Made by a program: the position numbers and the translations under genes
Shown: in pieces, positions 10,651-62,983 of the stretch
Position numbering within the stretch: the first letter of the stretch is position 1
Layout of the letters: every line of letters begins with the position of its first letter
Origin: an uncultured delta proteobacterium
GTDB lineage: Bacteria > Desulfobacterota > Binatia > Binatales > Binataceae
Assembly: GCA_963808235.1 (NCBI GenBank)
Contig: CAWEEQ010000004.1
Location: forward strand, 1,152,001 to 1,216,000
Reading direction: 5' to 3'
DNA length: 64,000 bases
Notes under the pieces: model-generated
Told to the model about the DNA's origin: nothing
Database searches by the model: none
The model's input: only the letters and a program-made list of their open reading frames with translations

Positions 10651-10764
10651 TGCGATGCGCTCCAGCCGGCGAATTACGATCCCGCTGGAATCAGTAGCAC
10701 AAAATATTTTTTAGCACTAAGCAGAGCGGCGCCGGCCGGAGAAGCGATGCGAGCAGATCGCGAA

Positions 10765-38496: not shown

Positions 38497-39858
38497 ATGA
38501 CTGCCCAACAGAATGATACATCGCGTCACGTGATGGCCGTGGTCGGCGCGGCGACGGCGGGTTCGGAAATTGCGCGGATTTTGGCGGAACGCGGCGCGCT
38601 GGTGATCGTATTCGAGCAGAACCCGCGGCCGTACGGCAAAATCGAAGACGGTCTGCCGCGATGGCACGTTAAGCAGCGCCACGACGAATACGAGGAGATC
38701 AACAAGCGCCTCGATCACCCTAATATCGAGTACGTGCCAAAGACGCGGATGGGGCGCGATCTCGATTTCGAGGAACTGCGCTCGCGATGGGGCCTGAACG
38801 GAATCGTGCTATCGCACGGCGCGTGGCGGGATCGGCCATTTCCAGTCGAGGGAGTGGACGAGTTCATCGATCGCGGCCTGGTCTATCAGAACAAGCTGAT
38901 TTACTGGTTCAATCATTATCTCGAAAAGGCGTATGACGGTCCGCGCTACGAGCTTAGCCCGGGCGTTACGGTCGTTGGCGGAGGGCTCGCGTCGATCGAC
39001 GTAGTGAAGGTCTTGCAAATCGAGACCGTGCTCACGGCGCTGAAGACGCGTGGAATCGAGGCGGACATGCTCGCGCTCGAGCGCGAAGGAATCGAGCCGG
39101 TGCTCAACGCGCGCGGGCTCAAGTACACAGACCTGGGTGTCGCACCGTGCAAGCTGTTTTATCGGCGGCGCGTACTCGACATGCCGCTCTCGGATATTCC
39201 TCCCGATGCGCCTGCGAAGCGAGCTGAAGCGCTCAAGATGGCGCGCGCGAAGATCCTTGAAAAGGCGCAGCGCAAATTTCTGTTCGAGTTCCAGGAGCTC
39301 CGCGCGCCCAGCGGCGTGATTACCGAAGGCGGCCTCATGGTTGGAGTAAATTTCAGCCGCACCGAAGTAGCGGACGGGCAAGTGCGAATCGTGCAGGAGA
39401 ATGCGGAAACGGCGCGCGCGAAGCTGACGATCAGCTCGATCGGGAGCATCCCGGAGCCGATCCCCGGAATACCTCAGCAGGGCGAGGTGTATACCTACGT
39501 CGATCGAAATGTCGGGCTCCTCATGGACGGACCAACGGCGGTATACGCGGCCGGCAACGTGCTGACGGGCAAAGGCAATATCAAGGACTCGCTGGAAAGC
39601 GGCACCGAGATTGGCATCCGCGTTGCCGAAGCATACCTGGGTCTGTCGGGAGAAGAATCGAGGCTCGCGGAGGGTGCGCGTAAGGAAGCGGCGGCGTCCG
39701 GCGAAAAAATTGCGGGCGCGATGAACGTGCGGCCGAAAATTTCGGAAGCGCAAGTCGCGGAACTGCTAAAACGGGTGCGCGAACGCCAGCGCGCGGTCGG
39801 CTACGAAGGCAGCTATCGCGCCTGGATCGGCAAAGTCACTCCGCCCGATCTGCAGTAG
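38497..39858 (+). CDS. FAD/NAD(P)-dependent oxidoreductase (ferredoxin-NADP+ reductase/FprA-like)
   Basis: VVGA..AG FAD site, PYG.I..G.P..H, VVGGGLASID, YRR, AG.V.TG.GNI. Confidence 0.75.
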   Translation: MTAQQNDTSRHVMAVVGAATAGSEIARILAERGALVIVFEQNPRPYGKIEDGLPRWHVKQRHDEYEEINKRLDHPNIEYVPKTRMGRDLDFEELRSRWGLNGIVLSHGAWRDRPFPVEGVDEFIDRGLVYQNKLIYWFNHYLEKAYDGPRYELSPGVTVVGGGLASIDVVKVLQIETVLTALKTRGIEADMLALEREGIEPVLNARGLKYTDLGVAPCKLFYRRRVLDMPLSDIPPDAPAKRAEALKMARAKILEKAQRKFLFEFQELRAPSGVITEGGLMVGVNFSRTEVADGQVRIVQENAETARAKLTISSIGSIPEPIPGIPQQGEVYTYVDRNVGLLMDGPTAVYAAGNVLTGKGNIKDSLESGTEIGIRVAEAYLGLSGEESRLAEGARKEAAASGEKIAGAMNVRPKISEAQVAELLKRVRERQRAVGYEGSYRAWIGKVTPPDLQ

Positions 39859-39875
39859 GTAGTTCGCGCAATTTT

Positions 39876-39907
39876 CTCTCCTTTCCAAGGAGAGGGTTAG
39901 GGTGAGG
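39876..39907 (-). repeat. REP-like palindromic element
   Basis: CCTCACCCTAACCCTCTCCTTGGAAAGGAGAG on the minus strand. Confidence 0.6.
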
Positions 39908-39909
39908 TT

Positions 39910-40147
39910 TCACGCCCGCCGTCCCAACCTCGTCAAATTGCCGTCTCGAGGATCCAGCTGCCATCCAATTCCCACGGTCACCAGATTACGCAAACCTCTC
40001 CGGACAGTGACTCTCCTATCAAAGGAGATCGCACCCTTCCAAAGGGGTAAGTCCTTCCGCAGACCGAGAGCAGAATACCGTCCTCGGGATTTTGCGATTG
40101 ACACCGGGTGCAGGGGTCAGCCCCTGCCGCCAGCCGCGCAGGCGTGA
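39910..40147 (-). ncRNA. candidate highly structured noncoding RNA (family unassigned)
   Basis: 10-bp terminal stem, nested long-range stems, several hairpins and possible pseudoknots; non-Watson-Crick positions are G-U on the minus strand; folded by eye only. Confidence 0.55.
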
Positions 40148-40257
40148 CTAAGATTCTTCGTTGTTGTGCATAATCCCGAAAACATTTTGCGCGCCAAGTT
40201 TTGCGTCGCCGGGCGCACGCCTGTAGGCTTTGCCTATCAGGCCAACGGAGGTGCGGT

Positions 40258-41505
40258 GTGGACGAACTCAAGCGAACTGATCCCGAAATTTTCAAGCTCA
40301 TCCAGGAAGAAGAGCGCTACGAGATCGATTCGATTCGTCTAATCCCTTCGGAGAATTACGTCTCCAAGGCGGTGCTGGAGGCAACCGGATCGATTCTCAC
40401 CAACAAATATTCCGAGGGCTACTCAGGGCGCCGCTACTACGAAGGCCAGCGCTACATCGATCAGATCGAAACGATTACAGTCAATCGCGCGAAGGCGCTG
40501 TTTAAAGCCGATCACGCCAACGTTCAGCCGTATTCCGGCTCTCCCGCGAACCTCGCCATATACTACGCGCTTGCCAAGCCGGGCGAGAAACTGATGGGCC
40601 TTGCGTTGCCGCATGGCGGCCATTTGAGCCACGGATGGGGCGTGACGCTCTCGGGCACGTTGTGGACCGCGGTTCCTTACGAGGTGGACCGCGAGACCCA
40701 GCGCATCGACTACGATGCGATGCGGTCGCAGGCGCGCAAGGAGCGCCCGCGAATCATCATCGCCGGCACCACCGCATACCCGCGTCAGCTCGACTTCAAG
40801 ATTTTCGCCGAGGTGGCGAAGGAAGTCGGCGCCTACCTATTGGCCGACATCTCGCACATCGCGGGACTGATCGTCGGCGGTGTGCATCCTGATCCCTCGC
40901 CTTTTGCCGACGTGATGATGACCACGACGCACAAGACGCTGCGCGGTCCGCGCGGCGCGATGATCCTGTGCAAAGCGGAGTTCGCCGAACGTATCGATCG
41001 CGCGGTTTTTCCGGGGCTTCAGGGCGGGCCGCACAATCACACCACCGCCGGAATCAGCGTGGCGCTCAAGGAGGCGGCGACGCCGGAATTCAAGCAGTAT
41101 GCCGCCAATGTCGTCCGCAACGCGAAGACACTTGCTGATGAATTGCTCGCGCGAGGCCTCACGCTAGTCTCGGGCGGCACCGACACTCACCTGATACTTA
41201 TCGATCTGCAGGGCAAGAACGTGACCGGCCGCAAAGCCGCGAAGGCGCTCGACGCCGCAGGCATCGTCTGCAACTTTAACACCGTTCCCTACGATCCGCG
41301 CAAACCGTTCAGCCCGAGCGGGATCAGACTCGGCACGCCCGCAGTCACGTCGCGCGGAATGGGCGACGCCGAGATGCGCCAAATCGGAAAGTGGATGGAC
41401 GACGCGCTCTCCCACGTCAACGACGAAGCAGCGCTGAAACGCATCGCAGGCGAAGTCACCGAGATGTGCCGTAAATTCCCCGCGCCAGGCATCGCGCCGA
41501 CTTAG
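40258..41505 (+). CDS. glyA: serine hydroxymethyltransferase
   Basis: LIPSEN, NKYSEGY.G.RYY, ANVQP, TTTHKTLRGPRG, GIRLGTPA; GGAGG plus GTG start. Confidence 0.97.
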   Translation: MDELKRTDPEIFKLIQEEERYEIDSIRLIPSENYVSKAVLEATGSILTNKYSEGYSGRRYYEGQRYIDQIETITVNRAKALFKADHANVQPYSGSPANLAIYYALAKPGEKLMGLALPHGGHLSHGWGVTLSGTLWTAVPYEVDRETQRIDYDAMRSQARKERPRIIIAGTTAYPRQLDFKIFAEVAKEVGAYLLADISHIAGLIVGGVHPDPSPFADVMMTTTHKTLRGPRGAMILCKAEFAERIDRAVFPGLQGGPHNHTTAGISVALKEAATPEFKQYAANVVRNAKTLADELLARGLTLVSGGTDTHLILIDLQGKNVTGRKAAKALDAAGIVCNFNTVPYDPRKPFSPSGIRLGTPAVTSRGMGDAEMRQIGKWMDDALSHVNDEAALKRIAGEVTEMCRKFPAPGIAPT

Positions 41506-41636
41506 TCGACAGCCGCGCCATCCCGACAATCCCAGGAGAATTCCCGCCTATTAAGTCTGCGCAATTGGTGGTATCTCCACGTCCGTAGCTGTTTATTTCT
41601 CGGAAATTGTTTCGGGGGAGGGAGGACTAGACGGAG

Positions 41637-42134
41637 ATGGAAGGATTCTCGGTACGTTTATCGCTAGTTGCGGCAGGATTGTTTGCGATCGCGCTGACCC
41701 TGGCGCCGGCAGGATTTGCTATCGCCCAGGACGCGAATGACGCGGACGCGACGGAGCAGACCGAAGCTAAAGTCCCGAATATTTCCGGCTGTTGGCAAGG
41801 CAACGCCTTCAACGACAGCCAGGGCAATACACTCATCACGTTCTTCTTCGGGCAGAAGAAAAACAAACTCAGCAAGAAACAGAGCACCTTCGATCTCGGA
41901 GGTAGCGTGTCTGTGCATGGTCCGATCTCGGGCGCGGTGAAGGCGACTAAATTCAAGTTCAAAGGCCCAGTAGCCGGGACCGGCTTCGATCCACGCACTA
42001 TCAAAGGAATCGGATTCTTCCAGAGCGACAACAGTCTCAGCGGAAACTACCAGTACGCCGGCAAATGCTTCGAGAATCAATTTACGGGCGGCGACTTTTC
42101 CAAGGTGATATTTCTTGGCGCGACTTGCCCATAG
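41637..42134 (+). CDS. exported hypothetical protein (beta-rich, 3 Cys)
   Basis: Signal peptide, strong RBS region, coding-like. Confidence 0.7.
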   Translation: MEGFSVRLSLVAAGLFAIALTLAPAGFAIAQDANDADATEQTEAKVPNISGCWQGNAFNDSQGNTLITFFFGQKKNKLSKKQSTFDLGGSVSVHGPISGAVKATKFKFKGPVAGTGFDPRTIKGIGFFQSDNSLSGNYQYAGKCFENQFTGGDFSKVIFLGATCP

Positions 42135-42136
42135 GG

Positions 42137-42381
42137 TGATGAATTGCGCTCAGTTCGCGGTCAAGGTGGTCCGGGACGGTGGCGACTCCGACACCACCTG
42201 ATACTGATCGATCTGCAGAACAAGAACGTGACCGGCCGCAACGCGGCGAAAGCGCTGGACGCCGCGCGCATCGTCTGCAACTTCAACGATCCGCGCAAAC
42301 CGTTCAGCCCGAGCAGGCTCAGACTCGGCACGCCGGCAGTTACGTCACGCGGGATGGGCGACGCGGAGATGCGCCAGATCG
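42137..42381 (+). repeat. degenerate duplicate of the glyA 3' region (~41137-41386)
   Basis: HLILIDLQ.KNVTGR.AAKALDAA.IVCNFN(12-nt deletion)DPRKPFSPS..RLGTPAVTSRGMGDAEMRQI. Confidence 0.9.
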
Positions 42382-43074
42382 CAGCGATTAACCCGGTTCT
42401 CGATAACCTTAAGATCGCTAGTCCGCAAAGAGAAAGTTCTTACAAGACATTGTCTGCGCTGAAAGAGCAATTCCTCGATCAGTTTCCTGGAGGTTTTCAC
42501 GGAAGGGAGTACCAATTCGCGGAGAGAAACTACAAGGTTGAAGCGCACGAACTAGCGAAGAAACTACTTCGTCGCACACATTTCGAAAAGGCACTCGCAT
42601 CGAAGAGGTTCGATGAACTCTTCGAGAATACCAGAAAAGTAATGCAGGCGACGAACTTGGTATTTCCCAATGAGAAGATGAACTTTACTGACGGACTAAG
42701 AAAGCTGCCTTTTCAAGAAGAGTTCTGTACAACTCTTTACGATCTGCTTTTCGACGAGGGCGATCTGAAACGACGATTCCTGTCCTTCTGTAGAGTCCTC
42801 GATGAGATTGGATCAGCGAAATGGACAGTTGCCACTTATTTTCCGTTTATCATGTACCCCGGCGAACATATGTTTATCAAGCCAATCGTTACTTCGAGAG
42901 CCGCAGAGGTCTGTGCATTCGAATTGAACTACAAACCGCAGCTGAATTGGCTGACATACGAGAAACTCCTATTATTTTCGCAATATCTCAGGAAAGAACT
43001 CTCAGATCTGAAACCTCGCGATATGATTGATGTTTCAATCATTCATATGGTGCACGGGCGAAGGGCAGGCGTGA
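42144..43074 (+). pseudogene. chimera of a glyA fragment and an N-truncated AT-rich foreign gene
   Basis: FPGGF...ER.YK, KWT.ATY, FIKP, PRDMID; removing one T at 43033-43035 gives DVQSFIW..stop 43074, as I recall for DUF3553-associated proteins. Confidence 0.6.
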
Positions 43075-43152
43075 ACATTTGCGCTAATGCAAAGCGGAGC
43101 GAGAGGAACCGTCGCCCCGACCCCATAAGGGCGCGGCTCAGCGCTCCAGCAT

Positions 43153-43179
43153 CCTAAACCCTCTCCGATCGGGAGAGGG
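43153..43179 (+). repeat. REP-like palindromic element
   Basis: CCTAAACCCTCTCC-GATCG-GGAGAGGG. Confidence 0.55.
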
Positions 43180-43667
43180 CGGCGCGCCTCCGCGCGCCGG
43201 GCGCGGGCGCCCGCATACCCCGACCTGCAAGCCGTCCCAGCTCGCGACAGCACCCCTTTCCTTCATTCTCTGATACTGCCCCGAATGAAAGATGTATTTC
43301 CTATTCCAGCCAGCATCAGCCGCAAATCGGCGATTTGTGGAATTCTGTCTCCGTGAGTATCCCAATGAGTCATCGGAAAACATCTGACAATCACCACATC
43401 ACATTCCGGCAAGGTGAAGTGGATCGTCACGACCGCGCAATTCCTGAACCGAAGAATCCTCGACGAGCGTCAGAATCCCCAGTAAACACGGAGCTTGGCT
43501 GCACTTCTGCATTTTCCCGCATCGTGAAAATCTTCATCGGCGATCGCAGCAAGGCAACTAACGGCAGGGTGAAAAGATCATCCGTCTTTTTGCTTTTCCT
43601 TCGTGTTTGTCGGCCCAACTAGTGATGCGCCTTGACATCGCGGGCGCAGCGACGGGATAAAATCCTC

Positions 43668-44753
43668 ATGGCGCAAATTAAAATTGAACGCGGCCTTCAC
43701 CTCGGAATTCCTTACACGCCCGATATGCAGACGGGCGAAAAACGGCCCGAGCCCACCTGGAGCGGGATTCGCGACCAGGTGCGCGATGCGGAGGCGCTCG
43801 GCTACGACACCTTGATCGCGGTCGAAACGCAGCACGACCCATACCTCGAGTTGGCGATTGCCGCACAGGAGCCTGCGAAGATCGAGCTCGCGACTGGAAT
43901 CGCGCTCGCATTCACCAAGAGTCCGGTTGCAACCGCGTATACTGCGTGGGATTTGCAGCGGATGAGTGGCGGACGATTGAATCTTGGACTCGGTTCGCAA
44001 GTAAAGGGTCACGTGATGCGCCGATTCGGGATGCCGTGGTCGAAGCCGGCGCAGCGGATGAAAGACTACGTGGGTGCGATGCGCGCATGCTGGAAGACGT
44101 GGCAGACCGGCGCGCCGCTGGATTTTCGCAGTGAGCACTACAATCTGTCGCTGATGACGCCCAACTTTGCGCCGCCACCGATCACGTCGAATCCGCAAAT
44201 CCCGGTGCTGATCGCGGCGGTGCAGGCGCTGATGCTTCAAGTCGCAGGCGAAGTGTGCGACGGCGTACGACTGCACGGAATCGTGACGCGAAAATATCTC
44301 GATCAGGTAGCATTTCCCAATCTGAAGAAGGGCTTCGAGAAATCAGGCCGGCCGGCCGCCGAATGGGGCAGCTTCCAGATTGGCGGCGGCGGGTTTCTGT
44401 GCGCCGCGAAGGACAAGGATTCGCTCGCGCGCGCAGTCAGCGCAATGAAATCGACAATCGCTTTTTACGGATCGACCCGCTCATACCGCTCCAGCTTCGA
44501 GATCGACGGATGGGGCGATACGGCCGATCAGTTACACAAGCTGTCGGTGCAGCAGAAGTGGCCGGAGATGGCGAAACTGGTGACCGACGAGATGGTGCAC
44601 GCGTTCGCGGCAACGGGAACCTACGACGAGATTGCGCGAGTGATCAAGAAACGGTTTGCGGGCGTCAACCGGCTCTCGTTCGACATGCCGATCAAGAACG
44701 ATCACGATCGCGGAGTGCTGAAGGAGATCATCCAGGACCTGCGCCGGCCCTGA
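43668..44753 (+). CDS. LLM-class, probably F420-dependent oxidoreductase (TIGR03617-like)
   Basis: ETQHDP.L, TGIA.AF..SP, AWDLQ..SGGR..LGLGSQVKGH, LMTPNF.P, AFYGST..Y. Confidence 0.85.
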   Translation: MAQIKIERGLHLGIPYTPDMQTGEKRPEPTWSGIRDQVRDAEALGYDTLIAVETQHDPYLELAIAAQEPAKIELATGIALAFTKSPVATAYTAWDLQRMSGGRLNLGLGSQVKGHVMRRFGMPWSKPAQRMKDYVGAMRACWKTWQTGAPLDFRSEHYNLSLMTPNFAPPPITSNPQIPVLIAAVQALMLQVAGEVCDGVRLHGIVTRKYLDQVAFPNLKKGFEKSGRPAAEWGSFQIGGGGFLCAAKDKDSLARAVSAMKSTIAFYGSTRSYRSSFEIDGWGDTADQLHKLSVQQKWPEMAKLVTDEMVHAFAATGTYDEIARVIKKRFAGVNRLSFDMPIKNDHDRGVLKEIIQDLRRP

Positions 44754-45455
44754 TCACGCGGCGGGCGGGTTGATGTCGGACCACAGGCGGCGCATCAACT
44801 CGATATGAGTTTCGACCGCCCAAAGAGTCTCGGCGGCGGCACTCTCGGGAATCGCGCGGAAGATCGAACCGGCGCTCGAGTCCCCGTGATCCCTGTCGAC
44901 TTTCACGTGAACGCTGAAGAAGAGTAGCGCGTCGTCGGAGAGTTTGTAATGGCGGCGGAGCCCGTCGATCACGCGCACGTAAGCGTCGGGGTTGAAGAGC
45001 TCGGAGCCGAGGCTGATTCCGGCCAGCGTGACGTACCACGGCCTCGACTCGGCGAGCCAGTACATCCAGTGGACCATCGCGGTCGCGTCGGTGGACATCG
45101 GAGCGTGGAGCAGCTCGTCGCGGGGAATTCCGATCGCCTCGCCGAATTCGAGATAGAGTTCGAGATGGGACCGGCCCGCGCCGGAGACGCGGCCGAGTTC
45201 CTCTTCGATCAAATTTTCCACGATTGCTTTGCGCGCTGGGAAATCGTCGCACTTCGCGTAGATGAGGCCGAGGATATTGGCGTTGTGCGCCTTGTTGCCG
45301 ATGAAGAGCTGAGTCGCCCAGTGGCGGAGCTGTGGCTGGGAAAGCTCGCCGCGCTCAATCTTCTCGATGGTCGGATGCGATCGGAGGGTTCGATTATTGC
45401 GCTCGAGTTTTTCGATCAAAGACTTAAGTTGGCGAGTTCCTTTTTCAACGTCCAC
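44754..45455 (-). CDS. heme-oxygenase-like diiron protein (PqqC/TenA/CADD family)
   Basis: ENL.EE.G...H, central E, FF.VH...D..H ligand set; overlaps the ligase stop; GGAGG RBS. Confidence 0.82.
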   Translation of the reverse strand: MDVEKGTRQLKSLIEKLERNNRTLRSHPTIEKIERGELSQPQLRHWATQLFIGNKAHNANILGLIYAKCDDFPARKAIVENLIEEELGRVSGAGRSHLELYLEFGEAIGIPRDELLHAPMSTDATAMVHWMYWLAESRPWYVTLAGISLGSELFNPDAYVRVIDGLRRHYKLSDDALLFFSVHVKVDRDHGDSSAGSIFRAIPESAAAETLWAVETHIELMRRLWSDINPPAA

Positions 45456-47118
45456 GATCAATTCCTCCGGTGTTGCTCTCGGCGGTGGAATTGCGTTCGC
45501 GGCTCACTTTCCTGGCTATATCCGCGCGCAATTCCACTTTTCGGACTTTGCCGACGTTGGTGAGCGGCAATTCGCGGACAATTTCGATTCGCTCAGGCCA
45601 TTTGAATTGAGCGACGCCGCGCGCGGCAAGATATTCGCGCATCGAGACGATGTCGAACGCGATGCGATTTCTGAGCGTCAGGTACGCGCATGCTTTCTCA
45701 CCGAGCACATCATCGGGCATCGCGACCACCGCGGCAGCATCGATCGCCGGATGAGCGATCAGGTGGGCTTCGATTTCCTCGGCGCTGATTTTCTCGCCAC
45801 CTCGATTGATCAGATCCTTGATCCTTCCCTCGACGACAAGATTTCCGGAAAGATCAAGCCGCACAACGTCACCGGTTCGATAGTAGCCGGCGAGATCGAA
45901 GGCTTCGCGATTGCGCTCGGGCGCGCGGAAGTAGCCGCGAATCGTGTATGGGCCACGACACCATAGCTCGCCGACCTCACCGGGGGCGGCGTCGCTTCCG
46001 TCGGGCTCGACGATCCGGATTTCGTCGCCGGATGAGACGGGCCGACCTTGCGTTTTGAAGGCCACTTCTTCCGGGTCGTCCAGGCGAGTGTAGCAGAGCA
46101 ACCCTTCTGCCATTCCCAGCACCTGTTGCACCGCAATGTGCGGGAAACTGGCTTTCAAACTGCGCGCCGTGTGCTCCTGGAGCCGTTGTCCGCCTACGGT
46201 GACCACGCGAAGCGACGACGAAAAGTCGGTACCGAAAGACTCCGAACAGCCGAGCAGTCCGAGCGCGACGGTCGGCACGCAGGGCAGATGGGTTACCTGC
46301 TCGCGGCCGATCACCTGCGCTAGATCGGCGGGCTTGGTCGATTGGCAAAGGATCGCACGCGCTCCCGTCAGCATCGCGCCGAGTAATCCGGGGCAGGCTA
46401 GTGGGAAATTGTGTTCGACGGGCAGCGCGATGAGTATGCGCGAATCCGGAGTTAGGCCGGTGACCTTCGCGGATACGCGTGCGTTGTAAAGAAAATCCGC
46501 ATGGGTGCGGGGGATAAGTTTCGGCATCCCGGTGGTGCCGCCCGAAAGGAGGAACAACGCTACGTCGTAAGGATCGTCGTTCGCAGATCCGATGCGACGG
46601 GAGCCGGCGTCGCGATCTTGCAAGCAAACGCATCCGTCGCCTGGCGTCGTCGAGAAGACCGATTTCAACATGGGCAGTTCGGCTACCAGCTCGCGAGCGA
46701 GGGCGGCGTGATCGAAGCCGCGATAGTCGGGAGCGATGGCGATGGCGTTGGCGCCGGCGAAGGAAATGAGGTACTCGAGCTCCGCTTTGCGAAACGCAGG
46801 TAGCGCCATGATCGGAATCGCGCCGATTTCGAGGCAGGCAACTGTCAGCGTCGCGAAATCGATGCAGTTGGGAAGCTGGATGACGATGCGATCGCCGCGA
46901 GCGACGTTTTCGCGATCGAGCAGCGCGGCAATATGCCCGGCTTCATCGAGGAGCTGCGAGTAGGTGAGACTTCGGGTCGAGTCGACCAAGGCGATTGAGT
47001 TGGGTCGTTGGTCAGCCGCGCGGACAATCGCCTGGGGAATCGTTTCGGCGTTCCAGAAGCCCTCGCGTATATATCGCTCGGCGAATTCGGGCGGGAATGG
47101 CGTGCATCCTTCGAGCAT
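45445..47118 (-). CDS. aryl-acid adenylating enzyme, EntE/PchD family, salicylate-type pocket
   Basis: LSGGTTG.PKLIPRTH, HNFPLACPG, QQV.GMAEGLL, YRTGD, INRGGEK, T.VGK. Confidence 0.88.
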   Translation of the reverse strand: MLEGCTPFPPEFAERYIREGFWNAETIPQAIVRAADQRPNSIALVDSTRSLTYSQLLDEAGHIAALLDRENVARGDRIVIQLPNCIDFATLTVACLEIGAIPIMALPAFRKAELEYLISFAGANAIAIAPDYRGFDHAALARELVAELPMLKSVFSTTPGDGCVCLQDRDAGSRRIGSANDDPYDVALFLLSGGTTGMPKLIPRTHADFLYNARVSAKVTGLTPDSRILIALPVEHNFPLACPGLLGAMLTGARAILCQSTKPADLAQVIGREQVTHLPCVPTVALGLLGCSESFGTDFSSSLRVVTVGGQRLQEHTARSLKASFPHIAVQQVLGMAEGLLCYTRLDDPEEVAFKTQGRPVSSGDEIRIVEPDGSDAAPGEVGELWCRGPYTIRGYFRAPERNREAFDLAGYYRTGDVVRLDLSGNLVVEGRIKDLINRGGEKISAEEIEAHLIAHPAIDAAAVVAMPDDVLGEKACAYLTLRNRIAFDIVSMREYLAARGVAQFKWPERIEIVRELPLTNVGKVRKVELRADIARKVSRERNSTAESNTGGIDRGR

Positions 47119-47135
47119 CGTCGTGCGTACCGCGA

Positions 47136-47798
47136 CTAGCGGGCAGAGAGCGTCCCGGCGATCATGCGGAAGCATTCGTCCATGATGCGGCCGCGCTGTT
47201 CGTAATCGCGTGCGGGGTCGTACCAGGTGTAGAACCAGTTCATGGCGCCGAAGAGCAGTGAGGTGAGGATGCGCGTTTGCTCGCGATCGAGCGTCTTGTT
47301 GCGATGCGCGGCGCAGGCTTCGAGCAGGCGGCGGCAGATGCGCGAGTACTCACGCTTGAGCCGCGTGATGTCGGCAGCATAACGGCCGGTGAGCGAATCA
47401 GCTTCGCGCACGAGCACTTTCATCTCGGCGAGATTCTGCATGTGGTACTCGAGATGGCTGCGGATGAAGAGGCGGAGGCGCTCTTCGGGTTCTTCGGTCG
47501 CGGACATCCGTTCTTCGGCGAGCGCGACCAATTGTTCGAATGCGCGGCGCGAAATAAGGTACAGAAGCTCCTCCTTATTGCGGAGGTAATAGTAGATGCG
47601 CGGGAATGATATTTTCGCGCGCGCAGCGATGTCGCGAATCGAGGCGAGGCCGAAGCTCTTTTCCGCGAAAACCGCCGCCGCCGAACGCAGGATGTGATCG
47701 ATATTCGCGTCGTAGCGTTCGTCATGGGCAATCGCGCGCGAGGGCGGCTTGATGCTCGCGATCTTTTTTGGCGCCGATTGCGCGTTTACTTTTTTCAC
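47136..47798 (-). CDS. TetR/AcrR regulator (KstR2/PaaR-like C-domain)
   Basis: HTH SIRDIA..A.IS...IYYY.NKEELL; LFGAMNW..TWY. Confidence 0.9.
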   Translation of the reverse strand: MKKVNAQSAPKKIASIKPPSRAIAHDERYDANIDHILRSAAAVFAEKSFGLASIRDIAARAKISFPRIYYYLRNKEELLYLISRRAFEQLVALAEERMSATEEPEERLRLFIRSHLEYHMQNLAEMKVLVREADSLTGRYAADITRLKREYSRICRRLLEACAAHRNKTLDREQTRILTSLLFGAMNWFYTWYDPARDYEQRGRIMDECFRMIAGTLSAR

Positions 47799-47835
47799 TG
47801 CGCACCCCTTTGTAGCATGGTCCTGAAAACGTCAA

Positions 47836-48567
47836 TCAACTGAAGCGGCGGCCGGCGGCGGGATCCGGGATGGGAATCTCGAGTTTGGTCAGCAGATTGT
47901 TGACCTCCGCCGTGAACTCATCGCGCATCTGCTCGTTGCTGCGACGCCGAAGTCCCCATCGCACGTAGTCGAATTGGCGCTTGGAGCCGGATTTGCCGAA
48001 CATGTCGAGGCCGGCCGGGTACCACTTTGCGAGATGCTTTATAAAGAGCTCGCGTCCGCGACCGCCTTCGCGATTCAGGTAACGGCGGATCAATCTGTAT
48101 CCGAATGCGGCGTGACCGAGTTCCTCTTTATGCACGCGCTCCGCGATTCGTGCGAGCGGTTCGTAACTGCACCCCACCCACTCGAAGCCCATGTAGGCGC
48201 CCTGGCGATCGGCGAAGAAGCTGAAAAGGCCGTATTCAAGCCAGTCCTCGGCCTGATCGCGCATTTCGAAAATGTAGATCGGCATCGGCGACGCCATGAA
48301 CTCCGCGTCGACTTTTACGGCGAGGTCTTCGAGCAGCTTCATCCAATAGCTCGCGTGACGAACCTCATCGGACCAGAATGCGGCGTACTCGGCCTTGTCT
48401 TCCGCCGTAGGAGCCAGCGCGAGTGGCTTCAGGAGCGTGCGCTCAGGCGCGAGCATATATTCTGATTCGATGCGCGATTGAATCGAGAGCATCCGGATCA
48501 GCAAATCTTTGTAGTCGGCGGGAAGGCTGTCGGGCCCTGAGAAGCGGATTTCCGTTGCGTCGCTCAT
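47836..48567 (-). CDS. PaaA-like ferritin-fold diiron protein (stand-alone)
   Basis: AP..EDK, DEVRH, SYEPLAR...V.KEELGH, W.P.GLDMFG, WGLR.RSNE.MR..F. Confidence 0.78.
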   Translation of the reverse strand: MSDATEIRFSGPDSLPADYKDLLIRMLSIQSRIESEYMLAPERTLLKPLALAPTAEDKAEYAAFWSDEVRHASYWMKLLEDLAVKVDAEFMASPMPIYIFEMRDQAEDWLEYGLFSFFADRQGAYMGFEWVGCSYEPLARIAERVHKEELGHAAFGYRLIRRYLNREGGRGRELFIKHLAKWYPAGLDMFGKSGSKRQFDYVRWGLRRRSNEQMRDEFTAEVNNLLTKLEIPIPDPAAGRRFS

Positions 48568-48699
48568 CGACTATTGTGCCCCTCGCGAAATATTGTGGAC
48601 TCACGAAGACGGCTCCACAAGCCGCGCAGTTCTGCTGTTCTGAACGATAGTTCACACCCCAATTGCCGGTCAATCCACGAAATTCAAGCTGGTACTTCG

Positions 48700-49458
48700 T
48701 CATCCCGACATGGTCAGGCCGCCGCTAACGCTCAGCACCTGACCGGTGACGAAGTCAGAATCGGAGGAAGCAAAGAATGCAACCGCGCCGACGAGGTCCG
48801 CAGGCTGCCCGAGGCGGCGAAATGGAATGCCGCGCGCCATCGATTCGAGGACTTTTTCGCGTCCCGCCATCGCAGTTTTGAGCAGCGCAGTTTCCGTCGG
48901 CCCCGGGCATACCACGTTGACGTTGATATGGCTGGCGGCCAGTTCGCGCGCCAGCGTTTTGGAGAAACCGATTATGGCGGCTTTGCATCCCGCGTAGACT
49001 GCTTCGCCGGTCGATCCGACGCGGGCCGCGTCGGAGGAGATCGAGACGATCTTGCCGCTGCCGCGCGATTGCATCCGCGGCGCGATCGCCTTGCAGCAGT
49101 TGAGGACGCCGCGAAAGTTGATCGCGATCAGCTGGTCCCAGAGCTCGGGGCCGGTTTCGAGGAACGGCTGGAGGACGTCCCATCCGGCATTGTTGATCAG
49201 GATGTCGATAGGGCCGAGTTCGCGTTCGACGCGATCGGAGGCAGCGAGCGCATCGTCGAGTTTTGTAACGTCGAGCCGGAGCGCGATCGCCACAGCGCCG
49301 GTGGAACGAATCCCGGCGGCGGCTTGCTCGGCTGAATCGAGCTGAATATCGGCGAGCGCGACTTTTGCGCCTTCGGAAGCGAGCCGCGACGCGATCGCTT
49401 GCCCAATCCCTTGTGCCGCGCCAGTTACGATTGCGACTTTGCCGTTAAGTCTGGTCAT
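48700..49458 (-). CDS. SDR, BadH-like (2-hydroxycyclohexanecarboxyl-CoA dehydrogenase-like)
   Basis: NNAGWD..PF, SDAARVGS.GEAVY..CK, FSKTLARE, VCPGPT.T, TGQVLSVSGGLTM. Confidence 0.85.
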   Translation of the reverse strand: MTRLNGKVAIVTGAAQGIGQAIASRLASEGAKVALADIQLDSAEQAAAGIRSTGAVAIALRLDVTKLDDALAASDRVERELGPIDILINNAGWDVLQPFLETGPELWDQLIAINFRGVLNCCKAIAPRMQSRGSGKIVSISSDAARVGSTGEAVYAGCKAAIIGFSKTLARELAASHINVNVVCPGPTETALLKTAMAGREKVLESMARGIPFRRLGQPADLVGAVAFFASSDSDFVTGQVLSVSGGLTMSG

Positions 49459-49480
49459 GCGAGATGCCTAACTGGCGAAC

Positions 49481-50236
49481 TTAACTCGCAATCCATCCGC
49501 CGTCGATGATGAAGGGTGCGCCGGTGGCGAACGGCGCTGCGTCACTCGCGAGGAACAACGCGGTCTGCGCAATTTCGTCGGCCGAGCCGACGCGGCCGAG
49601 GACGGAGCTGCGCTGGATAAACTTTGGTTGCATCCCGTCGGGGCCGGTGATTCGATCGACCATCGGGGTGTGGATGACGCCTGGGCAGATGCAGTTGACG
49701 CGTATGTTGTAGCGGCCGTACTCGAGCGCTGCGACGCGAGTGAGTGCGATGACCCCCGCCTTGGCCGCGCAATACGCGGCGGCGCCCTTGAGTCCCACGA
49801 TTCCCGCGACCGACGCAGTGTTGATGACCGCGCCACCGCCGCGCTCGACGATTTTCGGGAGCCCATACTTCATTCCGAGCCATACGCCGCGAAGGTTGAT
49901 CGCGATCACGCGGTCGAAAGCCTCTTCGCTAAGTTGCGCGATGAAACCGGACTCACCTTCGATTCCCGCGTTATTGTAGAGCACGTCGAGACCGCCGAAT
50001 GCGCGCGCCGTCTGCTCGACCATCGCACGCGCGTCCTCGGAGTCCGACACGTCGGCGCGAAGCGAAATCGCCTCGCCACCGGCGGCTTTGATCATCTGTG
50101 CGGTTTCGGCCGCCGACGCTTCGCCGACATCGACGGCGGACACCTTAGCGCCCTCGCGCGCGAACAGGAGCGAGGCAGCGCGGCCCATTCCAGAGCCCGC
50201 GCCGGTAATCAATGCGACCTTTCCTTGAAGTCTCAT
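49481..50236 (-). CDS. SDR oxidoreductase
   Basis: TGAGSGMG, NNAG, YCAAK. Confidence 0.92.
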   Translation of the reverse strand: MRLQGKVALITGAGSGMGRAASLLFAREGAKVSAVDVGEASAAETAQMIKAAGGEAISLRADVSDSEDARAMVEQTARAFGGLDVLYNNAGIEGESGFIAQLSEEAFDRVIAINLRGVWLGMKYGLPKIVERGGGAVINTASVAGIVGLKGAAAYCAAKAGVIALTRVAALEYGRYNIRVNCICPGVIHTPMVDRITGPDGMQPKFIQRSSVLGRVGSADEIAQTALFLASDAAPFATGAPFIIDGGWIAS

Positions 50237-50357
50237 GCGCTTTCTCTCCAAAACAGGTTCAGAATCCGAGCGGGTTCATCCGGCGCGAAGAGTAGCGCAC
50301 TTCAAGCATTTACGGTTAGCGTCATATTTCGATAGCGCCGAGAGAGGAGGAAAACCA

Positions 50358-51161
50358 ATGATGCAATTCAACGGCAAGGCGGGGCTGGTGACCGGCGGAG
50401 GATCGGGAATCGGGCGCGCAACCGCGATCGGGTTTGCAAGGTTGGGCGGGAGAGTCGCCGTGGCCGATATCAACGGGGAGAATGCCAACAAGGTGGCGGC
50501 GGAAATCGCGGGCGCAGGCGGCAAGGCGATTGCAATCGTTTGTGACGTCACGCGGGCCGCGGATATCGACATGATGATCGCGCGGACTAATGCGGAGTTC
50601 GGGCGGATCGACCTGCTCCACAATAATGCATTCGGACTGCCGGCGGCCGCATCGAGCAGCCAGGTAGCGTCGCGAACAGCAGACGTGACTGACGAAATCT
50701 GGAACTACATGATCGAGGTCGGTCTGAGCGCGGTGTTCAGAGCGATGAAGCGCGTGCTCCCGATCATGCGCGCGCAGGGCAGTGGCGCGATAGTGAACAC
50801 GGCGTCGATTTCGGGACTGCGCGCAGATTACGGAATACCGGCGTACAACGCGGCGAAGGCAGGCGTGATAAATCTGACCCGAGCGGTGGCGATCGAATAT
50901 GCGCCCTACGGGATACGCGCCAACTGCATCTGTCCGGGCGCGATCGACACGCCACTGCTGGCACCGGCGCTGTCGCAACCGGGATTCGCGGATCGGATAA
51001 GGGAAGCTATTCCCGTGGGCCGGCTGGGTAAGCCCGAAGAAATGGCGAATGTGGTGCTGTTTCTCGCGTCAGACCTTGCGTCGTTTGTAACCGGTGCGTC
51101 GTTCGTCGCGGACGGCGGGCAGTCAGCGAAGACCGGCAGCCCGTCGTTCATTCCGGAGTGA
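50358..51161 (+). CDS. SDR oxidoreductase
   Basis: TGGGSGIG, YNAAK, ICPG; GAGGAGG RBS. Confidence 0.92.
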   Translation: MMQFNGKAGLVTGGGSGIGRATAIGFARLGGRVAVADINGENANKVAAEIAGAGGKAIAIVCDVTRAADIDMMIARTNAEFGRIDLLHNNAFGLPAAASSSQVASRTADVTDEIWNYMIEVGLSAVFRAMKRVLPIMRAQGSGAIVNTASISGLRADYGIPAYNAAKAGVINLTRAVAIEYAPYGIRANCICPGAIDTPLLAPALSQPGFADRIREAIPVGRLGKPEEMANVVLFLASDLASFVTGASFVADGGQSAKTGSPSFIPE

Positions 51162-51164
51162 AAT

Positions 51165-51204
51165 ACAAAAGGACGGAGTCGCGGCTTAGAGCCGCGACTC
51201 CGTC
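51165..51204 (-). terminator. intrinsic terminator (possibly bidirectional)
   Basis: GACGGAGTCGCGGCT-TAG-AGCCGCGACTCCGTC 15-bp stem with T-tract on the minus strand. Confidence 0.8.
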
Positions 51205-51862: not shown

Positions 51863-52711
51863 CTATGCTCGACGGGTCGCCATCAGGCGGTTTGCATCCG
51901 GATAGCTCACGGACCCATCAAACATAGAGGCGTAAGTGCCCGTGCCGAGCAATTCTCCCGCTACCTTTCGCACCGTGCCCATGGCGGCGAGAGTTGGCGA
52001 CGTTCCGACGCTAAGTCGTGCGACGCCGAGCCGCTCGAGTTCCGAAACATTTGGAATGCCTGGCGACGCGAGCAAATTCAGCGGTCCTTCGAGCGCGGGC
52101 ACGATTCGCGCGATATCAGCAGGCTTAACGACGCGTGGCACAAAGAGACAGTCGGCGCCCGCGCCACGGTATGCATTCGCACGGCGCACTGCGTGATCGA
52201 AGCGGCTGTCCTCGACACCGACCGCGAGCAGATACACGTCGGTGCGCGCATTGATCACGATTGGAACGCCGCTCGAGTTGGCGGCTTGGCGCGCCGCTCG
52301 CACGCGCTCGATCGCAACGTCCAAATCGTAGAGTGAGTGCGAGCCGTCGTGAATCTGATCTTCGAGATTAATTCCGATGGCGCCCGCGTCGATTACGCGG
52401 CGAACGGTATCGGCCACTTCGCGTGCGTCGCGTGCGAAGCCGGACTCGATGTCCGCGGAAACGGGAACGGTTACAACTCGAGCGATACGAGCGATCGCCG
52501 CAATCATTTCATCGCGCGGCATCGCTTCGCCGTCGGGATAGCCGACCGAAAAGGCGACGCCGGCGCTAGTGGTTGCGATCGCGCGGGCGCCGGCCTCTTC
52601 GATAACCCGGGCACTCATCGCGTCCCACGCATTGGGCAGGACGAGAATCCTCGAGCCGACGTGCATCGCGCGAAATGCTTCCGCCTTGGCGCGTTGTGTA
52701 TCCTGATTCAT
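51863..52711 (-). CDS. isocitrate lyase/PEP mutase family protein
   Basis: LPNAWD..SA, ATTSAG, ADIESG, GINLED, INARTD, AGADC.F. Confidence 0.9.
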   Translation of the reverse strand: MNQDTQRAKAEAFRAMHVGSRILVLPNAWDAMSARVIEEAGARAIATTSAGVAFSVGYPDGEAMPRDEMIAAIARIARVVTVPVSADIESGFARDAREVADTVRRVIDAGAIGINLEDQIHDGSHSLYDLDVAIERVRAARQAANSSGVPIVINARTDVYLLAVGVEDSRFDHAVRRANAYRGAGADCLFVPRVVKPADIARIVPALEGPLNLLASPGIPNVSELERLGVARLSVGTSPTLAAMGTVRKVAGELLGTGTYASMFDGSVSYPDANRLMATRRA

Positions 52712-52795
52712 GTTGCCTCCGTCTGCGGGTCGATCTGTCGATACATACAACACCGCAGCGAGCCAGGTGTGAAATCGCGCGAACAAGATTGTGCA

Positions 52796-62967: not shown

Positions 62968-62983
62968 CGAAGCGAACAGCCTA

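Follow-up and report, generated by a model that had tools for sequence, protein, structure and literature searches.

A TetR-linked operon of the Binataceae that may activate a salicylate-like aromatic acid to a thioester and oxidise it

We interrogated the gene content of a 64,000-nucleotide stretch of DNA (the window) from an uncultured soil-dwelling member of the Binataceae, calling genes from Pfam and NCBIfam profile scans. The locus of interest contains the following features, in window coordinates.

43632/43668-44753, plus strand: F420-type LLM gene (TIGR03617, 361.6 bits against a cut-off of 278)
44754-45455, minus strand: HDO, an HO-like diiron protein (PF14518, E 3.7e-27)
45445-47118, minus strand: DhbE-family adenylating enzyme, the ligase below (PF00501 and PF13193)
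47136-47798, minus strand: TetR regulator (Pfam TetR_N and TetR_C_24)
47836-48567, minus strand: PaaA_PaaC-family protein of 243 aa, PaaA-like below (PF05138, E 8e-21)
48641-48654, no strand assigned: candidate palindromic operator TGAAC-N4-GTTCA, overlapping the -10
48644-48673, minus strand: sigma-70-like promoter TTGACC-18-TATCGT upstream of the PaaA-like gene (9/12 consensus matches)
48700-49458, minus strand: SDR with BadH as its best model (TIGR03206, 311.3 bits against a cut-off of 431.2)
49481-50251, minus strand: SDR2, a classical SDR and first gene of the minus-strand run (adh_short_C2, E 1.6e-66)
about 50358-51161, plus strand: SDR3, divergent (SDR Pfam match from residue 51 of a long ORF)
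51172-51204: terminator-like hairpin with a 15-bp stem, between the operon and the PEP-mutase-type gene
51863-52786, minus strand: PEP-mutase/isocitrate-lyase superfamily protein (PF13714, E 1.9e-84)

All eight genes of the original prediction, which was made from the DNA letters, are present in the order and on the strands that it gave (Pfam, NCBIfam). It had also noted the absence of NRPS, carrier protein, isochorismate synthase, paaBCDE and boxAC, and Pfam scans of 16 + 47 picked ORFs of the window likewise found no NRPS, carrier, chorismate-binding, PaaBCDE or BoxAC proteins; PP-binding domains have 10 matches genome-wide and 0 within the window. The internal gaps of the operon are at most 132 nt, leaving no room for an extra gene. 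Because enoyl-CoA hydratase, ring-opening hydrolase, aldehyde dehydrogenase, thiolase and thioesterase are all missing from the operon (Pfam), it does not encode a complete catabolic route. Two gene starts were corrected. That of the ligase is the second Met, at 47118, where its alignment with DhbE begins, and that of HDO is a GTG at 45455, eight bases after a GGAGG, giving a protein of 233 aa as in the orthologues. The HDO and ligase genes share 11 nt where the former starts and the latter stops, suggesting that they are translationally coupled.

The original prediction depended on the genes co-occurring elsewhere, and six of them do: SDR2, the BadH-like SDR, PaaA-like, TetR, ligase and HDO keep the same order in 33 of 35 type-1 Binataceae species loci with full flanks. 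The BadH-like SDR and TetR are present in 35/35 of these loci each and SDR2 in 33/35. The arrangement thus recurs in dozens of species and is more than chance. Ligase and PaaA-like genes are paired in three arrangements spanning two phyla: PaaA-like, TetR, ligase (type 1; 58 species loci, all from a single family), ligase directly followed by PaaA-like (type 2; 7 species loci, 17 loci altogether), and PaaA-like then ligase in Chloroflexota (L066 and L108-110). Synteny is just as strong for the flanking housekeeping genes glyA and DnaE2 as for the cluster. In one type-2 genus, over 1 Mb separates HDO, TetR and both SDRs from the ligase and PaaA-like pair; there SDR2 still adjoins the BadH-like SDR, TetR and HDO, with a ZIP metal transporter between TetR and HDO. 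HDO also occurs without the rest of the cluster in ten genomes, among housekeeping genes in the three inspected. The HDO and SDR module is therefore separable from the ligase and PaaA-like module, which weakens the idea of a single pathway. Every family genome with a PaaA-like orthologue also has HDO (69/69), although related genomes are not independent samples. The PaaA-like protein is found in 70 of 165 family genomes, in 42 of the 96 of high quality, and in 33 of 46 within its own genus, where both it and HDO are absent from 12 genomes, most of them small. Given this patchy distribution, the operon is most likely an accessory trait.

The F420 LLM gene, originally read as part of the pathway, instead belongs to the adjacent glyA unit as a convergent neighbour of the operon. 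It lies directly downstream of glyA in 23/33 loci, on the other strand from the operon; in genome G001, which has a split cluster, its orthologue is unlinked and sits among unrelated genes; and 107/165 family genomes carry it, including genera without the cluster. Its closest solved relatives are Mer enzymes. The third SDR likewise proved to be an optional neighbour, with an orthologue in only 13 of the 35 full-flank loci. The PEP-mutase-type gene is a possible, unproven associate, present in 22/35 type-1 loci and adjoining SDR2 at the split HDO locus in 2/3 type-2 genomes inspected.

The ligase has 5wm2 ('Salicylate-AMP ligase', E 3.3e-147), PchD and DhbE as its best solved relatives and scores 531 bits against TIGR02275, under the NCBIfam cut-off of 723. 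The salicylate-type pocket proposed for it is borne out: HNFPLAC and GMAEGLL are both found and align with the matching stretches of DhbE, PchD and 5wm2, and Cys occupies the position equivalent to Ser240 in 58/71 type-1 orthologues. Type-2 and Chloroflexota pockets differ (Ala or Ser; GMAEGFI), which means that the ligase and PaaA-like module does not have one uniform substrate. The genome holds no ligase paralogue at E 1e-40. PMC5416915 describes a DhbE-like enzyme, Ccb2, that forms salicylyl-CoA without a carrier, a precedent for the CoA transfer proposed here; we regard the enzyme of this operon as a probable aryl-CoA ligase.

Both diiron enzymes named in the original prediction, which are unrelated to each other, keep complete sets of metal ligands. 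In the PaaA-like protein, E34, E68, H71, D120, E149 and H152 are invariant across 18 sequences and align with the EAGH, D and EESFH positions of PaaA. It scores 78 bits against the PaaA model TIGR02156 (cut-off 280), and the top Foldseek matches of its AF2 model (pLDDT 92.6) are PaaA chains, the nearest being PaaA in complex with CoA esters (TMq 0.81). We infer a stand-alone ferritin-fold di-iron protein and putative oxygenase. A homodimer model scored 0.74 against 0.04 for the best control (pLDDT 90), and three runs fully agree in contacts; the mark it reached is also reached by 20/30 solved homomers and 1/23 solved monomers. The modelled protein is thus probably a single-subunit, homodimeric oxygenase. 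Likeness to the solved PaaA-PaaC pair may itself be reflected in the homodimer pass. The genome, which is 93% complete, gave no PaaB match. Neither a reductase nor a ferredoxin is encoded in the type-1 operon, and this genome lacks orthologues of the FNR and Fer2 partners found elsewhere. Such electron carriers adjoin relatives: L054 and L059 have an FNR-type reductase, L136 a 2Fe-2S ferredoxin and L126 a Rieske protein. Aryl-CoA-type PaaX regulators adjoin relatives in L112 and L126. An intradiol dioxygenase and a hydrolase next to some type-2 pairs look incidental; in this genome the hydrolase-RRM pair is found elsewhere, without the ligase.

HDO is nearest to CADD both by sequence (82.9 bits against TIGR04305, cut-off 200) and by fold (AF2 pLDDT 88.8; top Foldseek match CADD 8va9, TMq 0.81). 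Its invariant residues include E86-88, H99, E154, H185, D189 and H192. CADD has a sacrificial Tyr27 (PMC9522330), which aligns with Ile32 of HDO. The HDO orthogroup is limited to Binatia, with identity of at least 70% that then falls to at most 36%. Of the SDRs, the one originally called BadH-like does have BadH as its best model, but its 311 bits fall below the cut-off of 431, so that only a resemblance stands; the next best NCBIfam model is FabG (236 bits). The closest solved relatives of SDR2 include cyclohexanol dehydrogenase, levodione reductase and BbsD, and a conserved promoter-like block, GCTAAC-N17-TGCGCTA, lies upstream of its gene.

Among NCBIfam models, the TetR protein matches SACE_7040 and the Bacillus FadR-type acyl-CoA regulator, both weakly. 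Of the 58 type-1 species loci, 54 carry an exact copy of the palindrome TGAAC-N4-GTTCA, 42-109 nt ahead of the PaaA-like gene, and the other four retain a GAAC-N4-GTTA core; the palindrome is also exact in 38/45 type-1 metagenome loci and, about 30 nt upstream of the ligase, in 3/17 type-2 loci. Within the window it has one match against 1.21 expected, which is not significant alone. A promoter consensus scan, weak alone, gave 3 sites in 9.6 kb against 2.2 expected; the promoter draws its support from the conserved operator over its -10. The site is conserved, and we regard it as a candidate TetR operator, with TetR binding and the ligand as predictions.

We tentatively favour, at somewhat less than an even chance, an accessory, TetR-repressed operon of the Binataceae in which a salicylate-like aromatic acid is activated to a thioester and oxidised in that form, with O2. 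Judging from its pocket, the DhbE-family enzyme would adenylate a 2-hydroxy or similarly ortho-substituted benzoate; the acyl group would then pass to CoA, as in the Ccb2 precedent, because a carrier protein is unavailable. The PaaA-type di-iron oxygenase, as its fold, ligands and gene coupling suggest, may epoxidise or hydroxylate the aryl-CoA ring with electrons from a general ferredoxin/reductase. In the least certain step, HDO and the two alicyclic-type SDRs would process an oxygenated, possibly non-aromatic intermediate. TetR would bind the TGAAC-N4-GTTCA site, which overlies the internal promoter's -10, and the aryl-CoA or the acid would release it. CoA thioester formation and dearomatisation are both predicted activities.

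The same genes could serve a carrier-free biosynthetic cluster, in which HDO makes or tailors an aromatic acid (compare CADD and pABA), the ligase activates it, and the PaaA-like protein and SDRs modify it further to give a small metabolite or a molecule resembling a cofactor. The proximity of HDO to CADD speaks for this, as do the coupling of the ligase and HDO genes, the missing downstream catabolic genes, the ZIP transporter of the split arrangement and, judging from published abstracts, the mostly biosynthetic roles of characterised HDOs; without PabB and salicylate synthase in the genome, an unconventional source of aryl acid is conceivable. However, the CADD Tyr27 is replaced by Ile, the operon lacks a transferase, an exporter and any other tailoring gene, and catabolic operons typically combine TetR control with a ligase and an oxygenase. 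The patchy distribution, including loss from small genomes within the genus, would suit an accessory trait whether catabolic or biosynthetic. We consider a biosynthetic role unlikely.

About equally unlikely is an interleaving of two unrelated functions, ligase with PaaA-like on one side and HDO, TetR and the two SDRs, acting on another substrate, on the other, with the type-1 order a lineage-specific accident of vertical descent. The separate loci in one genus, the solitary HDO of 10 genomes, the equally syntenic glyA and DnaE2 flanks and the confinement of type 1 to one family would all fit. Against it, an operator-controlled promoter heads PaaA-like, TetR, ligase and HDO, which are tightly packed with overlapping or near-abutting genes; the palindrome also precedes ligase and PaaA-like in 3 type-2 loci, where TetR would lie elsewhere; and HDO accompanies the PaaA-like orthologue in all 69 genomes. 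It is highly improbable that the ligase serves a distant siderophore-type NRPS/PKS assembly line as a stand-alone aryl-adenylating enzyme, the outcome that would have undone the original prediction. The ligase does belong to the DhbE/PchD family, and two NRPS-containing loci are present in the genome, as is a free-standing carrier (C1:130496), but both loci are PKS-NRPS hybrids whose NRPS part opens with a condensation domain after PKS modules, with no Cy domain or aryl carrier in either. Genome-wide, neither an aryl carrier nor a synthase for isochorismate or salicylate was found, TrpE being the only chorismate-binding enzyme, and the ligase keeps its PaaA-like partner across three arrangements and two phyla.

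The operon is probably an undescribed way to oxidise an aromatic acid, with catabolism or detoxification a more likely purpose than biosynthesis.

We examined the gene content of the window, which spans G000:C4:1152001-1216000 in the source genome (G000, contig C4), an assembly of 4.59 Mb in four contigs that is 93% complete and whose proteins have close relatives labeled Candidatus Binatus or Binataceae. Pfam and NCBIfam scans recovered every member of the gene set named in the original prediction. Pfam scans also bore out its list of absences, as no NRPS, carrier protein, chorismate-binding enzyme, PaaBCDE, or BoxAC is encoded in the window. The HDO gene starts with GTG, eight bases past GGAGG, and overlaps the stop codon of the ligase gene by 11 nt. 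Further along the window, a 785-aa ORF (58673-61030) carries an aromatic-ring-hydroxylase type FAD_binding_3 domain in its C-terminal half, and its first ~380 residues have no Pfam match.

Genes of the cluster and its neighbors, in window coordinates
43632/43668-44753, plus strand: F420-type LLM oxidoreductase (LLM), above the TIGR03617 cut-off
44754-45455, minus strand: heme-oxygenase-like dimetal protein (HDO), PF14518
45445-47118, minus strand: DhbE-family adenylating enzyme (ligase), from Pfam/NCBIfam scans
47136-47798, minus strand: TetR regulator, from Pfam/NCBIfam scans
47836-48567, minus strand: PaaA_PaaC-family protein of 243 aa (PaaA-like), from Pfam/NCBIfam scans
48700-49458, minus strand: SDR with BadH as best NCBIfam model, below its cut-off (BadH-like SDR)
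49481-50251, minus strand: second SDR (SDR2), from Pfam/NCBIfam scans
about 50358-51161, plus strand: third SDR, divergent, from Pfam/NCBIfam scans

A pattern scan with one genome per species returned 70 loci encoding a PaaA-like relative: 58 with the gene order of the window (type 1), seven in which the ligase gene directly precedes the PaaA-like gene and HDO and SDRs are missing (type 2, 63-70% identical), four from Chloroflexota, and one distant locus from Methylomirabilota. The expected co-occurrence holds for most of the set but not for the third SDR. Full 10-kb flanks are available at 35 type-1 loci. All of them have the BadH-like SDR, PaaA-like, TetR, ligase, and HDO genes, joined in 33 by SDR2 in the same order and strand, but the third SDR is found in only 13. 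The flanking genes glyA, encoding SHMT, an FprA-like reductase, and DnaE2 are nearly as syntenic as the cluster, and within-family synteny alone is thus weak evidence of function. The ligase gene is directly followed by the PaaA-like gene in type-2 genomes, at a locus without HDO or SDRs, and the PaaA-like gene is followed by the ligase gene on the Chloroflexota contigs (L066, L108-110). Three type-2 genomes encode an 80%-identical HDO elsewhere, in a run of SDR2, BadH-like SDR, TetR, ZIP-family transporter, and HDO, which a PEP-mutase-family gene precedes in two of the three. The ligase and PaaA-like genes are a firm module, and the HDO, TetR, and two SDR genes are a looser one. In the type-2 runs (L090, at 10129-10851; L091; L092), the ZIP-family metal transporter gene occupies the place that the ligase gene holds in type 1, between TetR and HDO, and could provide a metal supply for HDO; a 74%-identical ZIP is encoded elsewhere in the source genome. 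An intradiol dioxygenase and an alpha/beta-hydrolase encoded beside type-2 pairs were rejected as a clue to downstream steps, since the source genome lacks an orthologue of the dioxygenase and carries the hydrolase-RRM pair elsewhere, with no ligase beside it.

Within the family, the PaaA-like protein is encoded in 70 of 165 genomes (69 orthologues and one protein 37% identical) and HDO in 79; these tallies include the unpublished-flagged genomes G022, G162, and G167, whose omission shifts the counts by at most three. Of the 96 high-quality genomes in the family, 42 have the cluster, which occurs in 10 of 30 genera. In the genus of the source genome, 33 of 46 genomes have it, and neither the PaaA-like protein nor HDO is encoded in 12 others, mostly small (2.7-4.2 Mb). 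The cluster is therefore accessory. All 69 genomes with a PaaA-like orthologue also encode HDO, and HDO occurs alone in ten; in the three of these looked at, its gene lies among housekeeping genes. An alternative view of these patterns, in which the cluster consists of two unrelated modules interleaved by descent, seems to us quite unlikely.

The original prediction rested its substrate on two pocket motifs, HNFPLAC and GMAEGLL. Both are present in the ligase and align with the pocket of PchD (HNFTLCC/GMAEGLI) and of the salicylate-AMP ligase 5wm2 (HNFALAC/GMAEGLL), not with that of DhbE (HNYPLSS/GMAEGLV). The rule for the salicylate subgroup, which we take, together with its numbering, to be that of the DhbE structure paper, places Phe, Cys, and Leu/Ile at DhbE Tyr236, Ser240, and Val337. 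The ligase has these residues of the PchD/YbtE/MbtA type, and the pocket Cys is retained in 58 of 71 type-1 ligase orthologues. It carries PF00501 and PF13193, that is, full-length AMP-binding N- and C-domains that match DhbE, PchD, and salicylate-AMP ligase end to end: the 557-aa form of the ligase aligns with 5wm2, 7tyb, and 1md9 over residues 1-540, and the alignment with DhbE begins at the second Met. With 531 bits against a cut-off of 723.55 for TIGR02275 ((2,3-dihydroxybenzoyl)adenylate synthase), the ligase is, by its sequence, a DhbE-family relative and not a DHB-AMP ligase equivalog.

NRPS-linked members of the salicylate-activating subgroup come with a carrier/NRPS and a salicylate synthase. 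Neither belongs to the ligase described here, as no aryl carrier or NRPS partner is encoded in the window, and no PabB, MenF, salicylate synthase, or isochorismate synthase was found in the genome at its 93% completeness. The sole chorismate-binding enzyme scores as TrpE. The two NRPS loci of the genome are PKS-NRPS hybrids that are PKS-primed and have neither a Cy domain nor an aryl carrier, and the ligase is without a paralogue in the genome. It is thus highly improbable that the ligase serves a distant NRPS. An AurF-family N-oxygenase gene (E 3.3e-79; G000:C4:2066291-2067268, L095) adjoins a PKS-NRPS hybrid that comes with thioesterases and a phosphopantetheinyl transferase. From the missing carrier protein and the precedent of Ccb2, we infer that the ligase may form a CoA thioester. 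In celesticetin biosynthesis (PMC5416915), Ccb2, which resembles DhbE and salicylate-AMP ligase, forms salicylyl-CoA with no carrier protein involved; Ccb2 differs in supplying an acyltransferase in antibiotic biosynthesis, and no acyltransferase is encoded in the operon.

The PaaA-like protein has the ferritin-like fold and the Glu, GluxxHis, Asp, GluxxHis di-iron site of PaaA, with E34, E68, H71, D120, E149, and H152 invariant and aligned to the PaaA metal ligands. Its AF2 model (pLDDT 92.6) best matches PaaA chains solved with CoA esters (TMq 0.81), followed by SSO1313, BoxB, and PaaC. It scores 78 bits against a cut-off of 280 for PaaA itself (TIGR02156). No PaaB, C, D, or E gene lies beside it, and PaaB (PF06243) has no match in the 93% complete genome. 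A homodimer model (pLDDT 90) scores 0.74 against 0.04 for the best control, a result that may be partly owed to likeness with the solved PaaA-PaaC pair; the passing mark is reached by 20 of 30 solved homomers and one of 23 solved monomers, and the runs agree in their contacts. An exhaustive profile search gave 646 matches at E 0.001, a count that fell to 49 at E 1e-30. Most matches are 235-265 aa long, and the PaaA-like subfamily is small, with 49 representatives among 1.84 billion at the latter threshold. Eight longer matches were scanned for fusions and contained no informative extra domain, one of them being PaaX fused to a true PaaA, and a word search for longer forms gave one partial match. 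A candidate ligase-PaaA fusion, the protein P0111, was rejected because its gene call looks frameshifted. Relatives of the PaaA-like gene adjoin genes for an FNR-type reductase (L054, L059), a 2Fe-2S ferredoxin (L136), or a Rieske protein (L126), and PaaX-type regulators are encoded beside them in L112 and L126.

Two other regions of the source genome encode related proteins. A second stand-alone PaaA_PaaC-family protein (254 aa, 26% identical; G000:C4:3119699-3120463, L097) is encoded directly after two hot-dog dehydratase genes (FAS1-like DH, MaoC). A separate cluster at G000:C4:82-100 kb (about 86-91 kb, L098) encodes a regulator with HTH and shikimate-kinase-type domains, a 411-aa enoyl-CoA hydratase-family protein, and a 474-aa ORF with a weak match to the PaaA-like query. 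It is likely a Box-type benzoyl-CoA cluster, in which the names BoxR, BoxC, and BoxB come from context, not from model matches.

HDO scores 95.7 bits with PF14518 (cut-off 28.9) and has the heme-oxygenase-like helical fold with three carboxylate and three His ligands that defines the HDO superfamily; the ligand positions E86-88, H99, E154, H185, D189, and H192 are invariant, giving a full set. Its fold matches CADD, PqqC, and UndA, and CADD is nearest in both sequence and fold. HDO shares fold and full ligand set with CADD and with the superfamily members UndA, BesC, SznF, AetD, and FlcD. CADD sacrifices Tyr27 in making p-aminobenzoate (pABA), according to published work (PMC9522330). Ile32 of HDO aligns with this residue, and HDO scores 82.9 bits against 200 for the CADD-type pABA synthase model (TIGR04305). 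The orthogroup is limited to Binatia, within which identity is at least 70% and then falls to at most 36%. A second HDO of 230 aa, encoded between a DsbD-like gene and gyrB (G000:C4:2989811-2990500, L093), scores 133.7 bits with the CADD family model, nearer to its cut-off of 200 but still short of it. As TrpE is the only chorismate-binding enzyme and PabB is lacking, the two CADD-like HDOs are candidate sources of p-aminobenzoate. The second HDO was rejected as a universal pABA synthase, being present in only 68 of 165 family genomes, mostly in cluster-bearing genera, and in none of the ten genomes of the type-2 genus. The 7.1-Mb Chloroflexota genome that holds L067 (G005) has 19 matches to the HDO query at 23-36% identity, an unusual expansion of heme-oxygenase-like proteins.

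The operon SDR originally called BadH-like does have BadH as its best NCBIfam model, but its score of 311.3 bits is under the equivalog cut-off of 431.2 (TIGR03206). BadH is a 2-hydroxycyclohexanecarboxyl-CoA dehydrogenase, and its partners BadK and BadI are absent here.

A promoter-like TTGACC-18-TATCGT lies upstream of the PaaA-like gene, with the -10 element covered by the palindrome TGAAC-N4-GTTCA (48641-48654). This palindrome has one match in the window and is not significant alone; it is the recurrence of its position across loci that argues for an operator. The exact palindrome occurs 42-109 nt upstream of the PaaA-like gene in 54 of the 58 type-1 species loci, and the other four retain GAAC-N4-GTTA. 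Among 45 type-1 metagenome loci, 38 have it exactly, three more have one mismatch, and two have no upstream sequence. It is also exact in 3 of 17 type-2 loci, about 30 nt upstream of the ligase gene. Its location over the promoter of the PaaA-like gene indicates that the regulated unit of type 1 comprises the PaaA-like, TetR, ligase, and HDO genes. With TetR_N and TetR_C_24 domains and a palindromic site at the promoter, the regulator has the marks of an acyl-CoA-responsive TetR, and its ligand may be the aryl-CoA or the acid. A generic repeat search within the operon gave nothing useful, and no second copy of the operator was found upstream of SDR2. A different promoter-like block (GCTAAC-N17-TGCGCTA, 50285-50325, minus strand), distinct from the TetR-type palindrome, is found there in at least 12 of 15 aligned loci; SDR2 and the BadH-like SDR thus have a promoter-like block of their own. 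A strong terminator-like hairpin (51172-51204) ends the neighboring unit.

The F420 enzyme, which the original prediction counted as part of the pathway, was taken out of it. LLM belongs to the TIGR03617 family (361.6 bits, cut-off 278.15) in a genome with F420 biosynthesis; cofE (F420-0:gamma-glutamyl ligase) and cofD, at 62215-63910 of the window, are reported about 12 kb away. Its nearest solved relatives are Mer enzymes. LLM converges on and abuts HDO in 26 of 33 loci, but it is directly downstream of glyA on the same strand in 23 of the 33, and an 82%-identical orthologue in the genome G001 lies among polysaccharide and methyltransferase genes, unlinked to the cluster. In addition, LLM is encoded in 107 of 165 family genomes, including genera without the cluster, against 69 with the cluster (the LLM tally includes the unpublished G022, G162, G168, and G169). 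The glyA linkage, the separation in G001, and the wider distribution together place LLM outside the pathway, and a false lead is thereby removed. glyA shares its strand with the genes of the 453-aa FprA-like flavoprotein and of the Mer-like LLM (38497-44753), and the synteny of the three in most relatives suggests that they form a C1-related unit. LLM was rejected as a missing methylene-THF reductase, as a MetF-type gene is present elsewhere. In the window, about 2.1 kb found in no related locus is inserted between glyA and LLM (41506-43631), which adjoin each other in 23 of the 33 related loci with LLM. GC is lower near the insert (0.536 for 42-44 kb), and it contains a secreted-looking 165-aa ORF as well as another ORF that repeats the SHMT C-terminus in its first ~80 residues and continues with unrelated sequence.

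We tentatively read the cluster as a TetR-repressed accessory operon, a reading that we consider possible and a little short of probable. The ligase would activate a salicylate-like acid as its CoA ester, the minimal PaaA-type oxygenase, with a presumed electron donor, would oxidize the ring of this ester, and HDO and the SDRs would then act on the product. The gene set contains no hydratase, ring hydrolase, aldehyde dehydrogenase, thiolase, or thioesterase, which counts against a complete catabolic route. So does the absence of a reductase from the type-1 operon; nor does the source genome encode orthologues of the FNR and Fer2 partners found at other loci. The roles of HDOs are known mainly from natural-product and cofactor biosynthesis. 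A carrier-free biosynthetic cluster, as an alternative for the same genes, is unlikely in our judgment. A more ambitious form of the catabolic reading is rather doubtful. Here the ligase and PaaA-like protein would represent a third, minimal aerobic aryl-CoA ring-oxygenase architecture, a homodimeric single subunit without PaaB/C/D or BoxA-like partners, and in Binataceae HDO and alicyclic-type SDRs would replace the hydratase and aldehyde-dehydrogenase steps of Paa/Box, giving a new CoA-dependent dearomatizing route for salicylate-like acids and the first catabolic role of an HDO.

By analogy, the operon may work in a way akin to the salicylyl-CoA route to gentisate and to the two 'hybrid' pathways, Paa and Box. 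It belongs to none of the systems compared, since the PaaA, DhbE, CADD, and BadH equivalog cut-offs are all missed. The phenylacetyl-CoA 1,2-epoxidase PaaABC(D)E of E. coli (3pvr, 3pw8, 4ii4, 4iit) acts downstream of an acid-CoA ligase, and its catalytic subunit has a ferritin fold with metal ligands at the same six positions. However, PaaA is about 310 aa against 243 aa here and pairs with PaaC, whereas a homodimer is predicted here, and PaaG- or PaaZ-type follow-up enzymes are lacking. In the benzoyl-CoA 2,3-epoxidase BoxAB with BoxC (3per, 3pm5), the aryl-CoA ring is oxygenated by a di-iron protein of this fold class, to which the matches are weaker. BoxB, however, measures about 475 aa and works with its own reductase, BoxA, and with BoxC, which cleaves the ring. 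The antimycin 3-aminosalicylate system (AntF/AntG and AntHIJKL) combines an aryl-acid-activating enzyme with a PaaA-type oxygenase acting on the activated aryl thioester; it uses a carrier protein and a full five-subunit PaaABCDE-like set, neither of which is in the operon. The salicylyl-CoA route is encoded by sdgABCD in Streptomyces sp. WA46, with SdgC as salicylyl-CoA 5-hydroxylase. The hydroxylase of this route is not known to be a ferritin-fold di-iron protein. In the route, which is mentioned in PMC13215587, salicylate is activated as a thioester and then ring-oxygenated, as proposed here. The operon has no gentisate dioxygenase, and HDO and SDR genes are not known to belong to that route. 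The literature searched on salicylyl-CoA, PaaA-like proteins, HDOs, and Binatota yielded no description of this gene set, nor of an HDO within a ligase and oxygenase operon.

Two 'hybrid' types of aerobic aromatic pathway, Paa and Box, are known, which first form a CoA thioester and then epoxidize the ring; both have multi-subunit oxygenases. If our reading is true, a conserved, self-sufficient 243-aa oxygenase of the PaaA type, tied to an aryl-acid ligase, would add a third and simpler form, and a single-subunit oxygenase of this type would be easy to express and assay. HDOs would also gain a role beyond those known, as part of a repressor-controlled operon with a ligase and an oxygenase. The host family is common in soils and peat, and no member of it is known in culture. 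The main text of the Binatota genome survey (PMC8262859), the one survey of the family, contains none of six terms searched for and does not mention aromatic metabolism. If the operon serves to turn over salicylate or related phenolic acids of plants, it would thus give this little-understood group a further trait.
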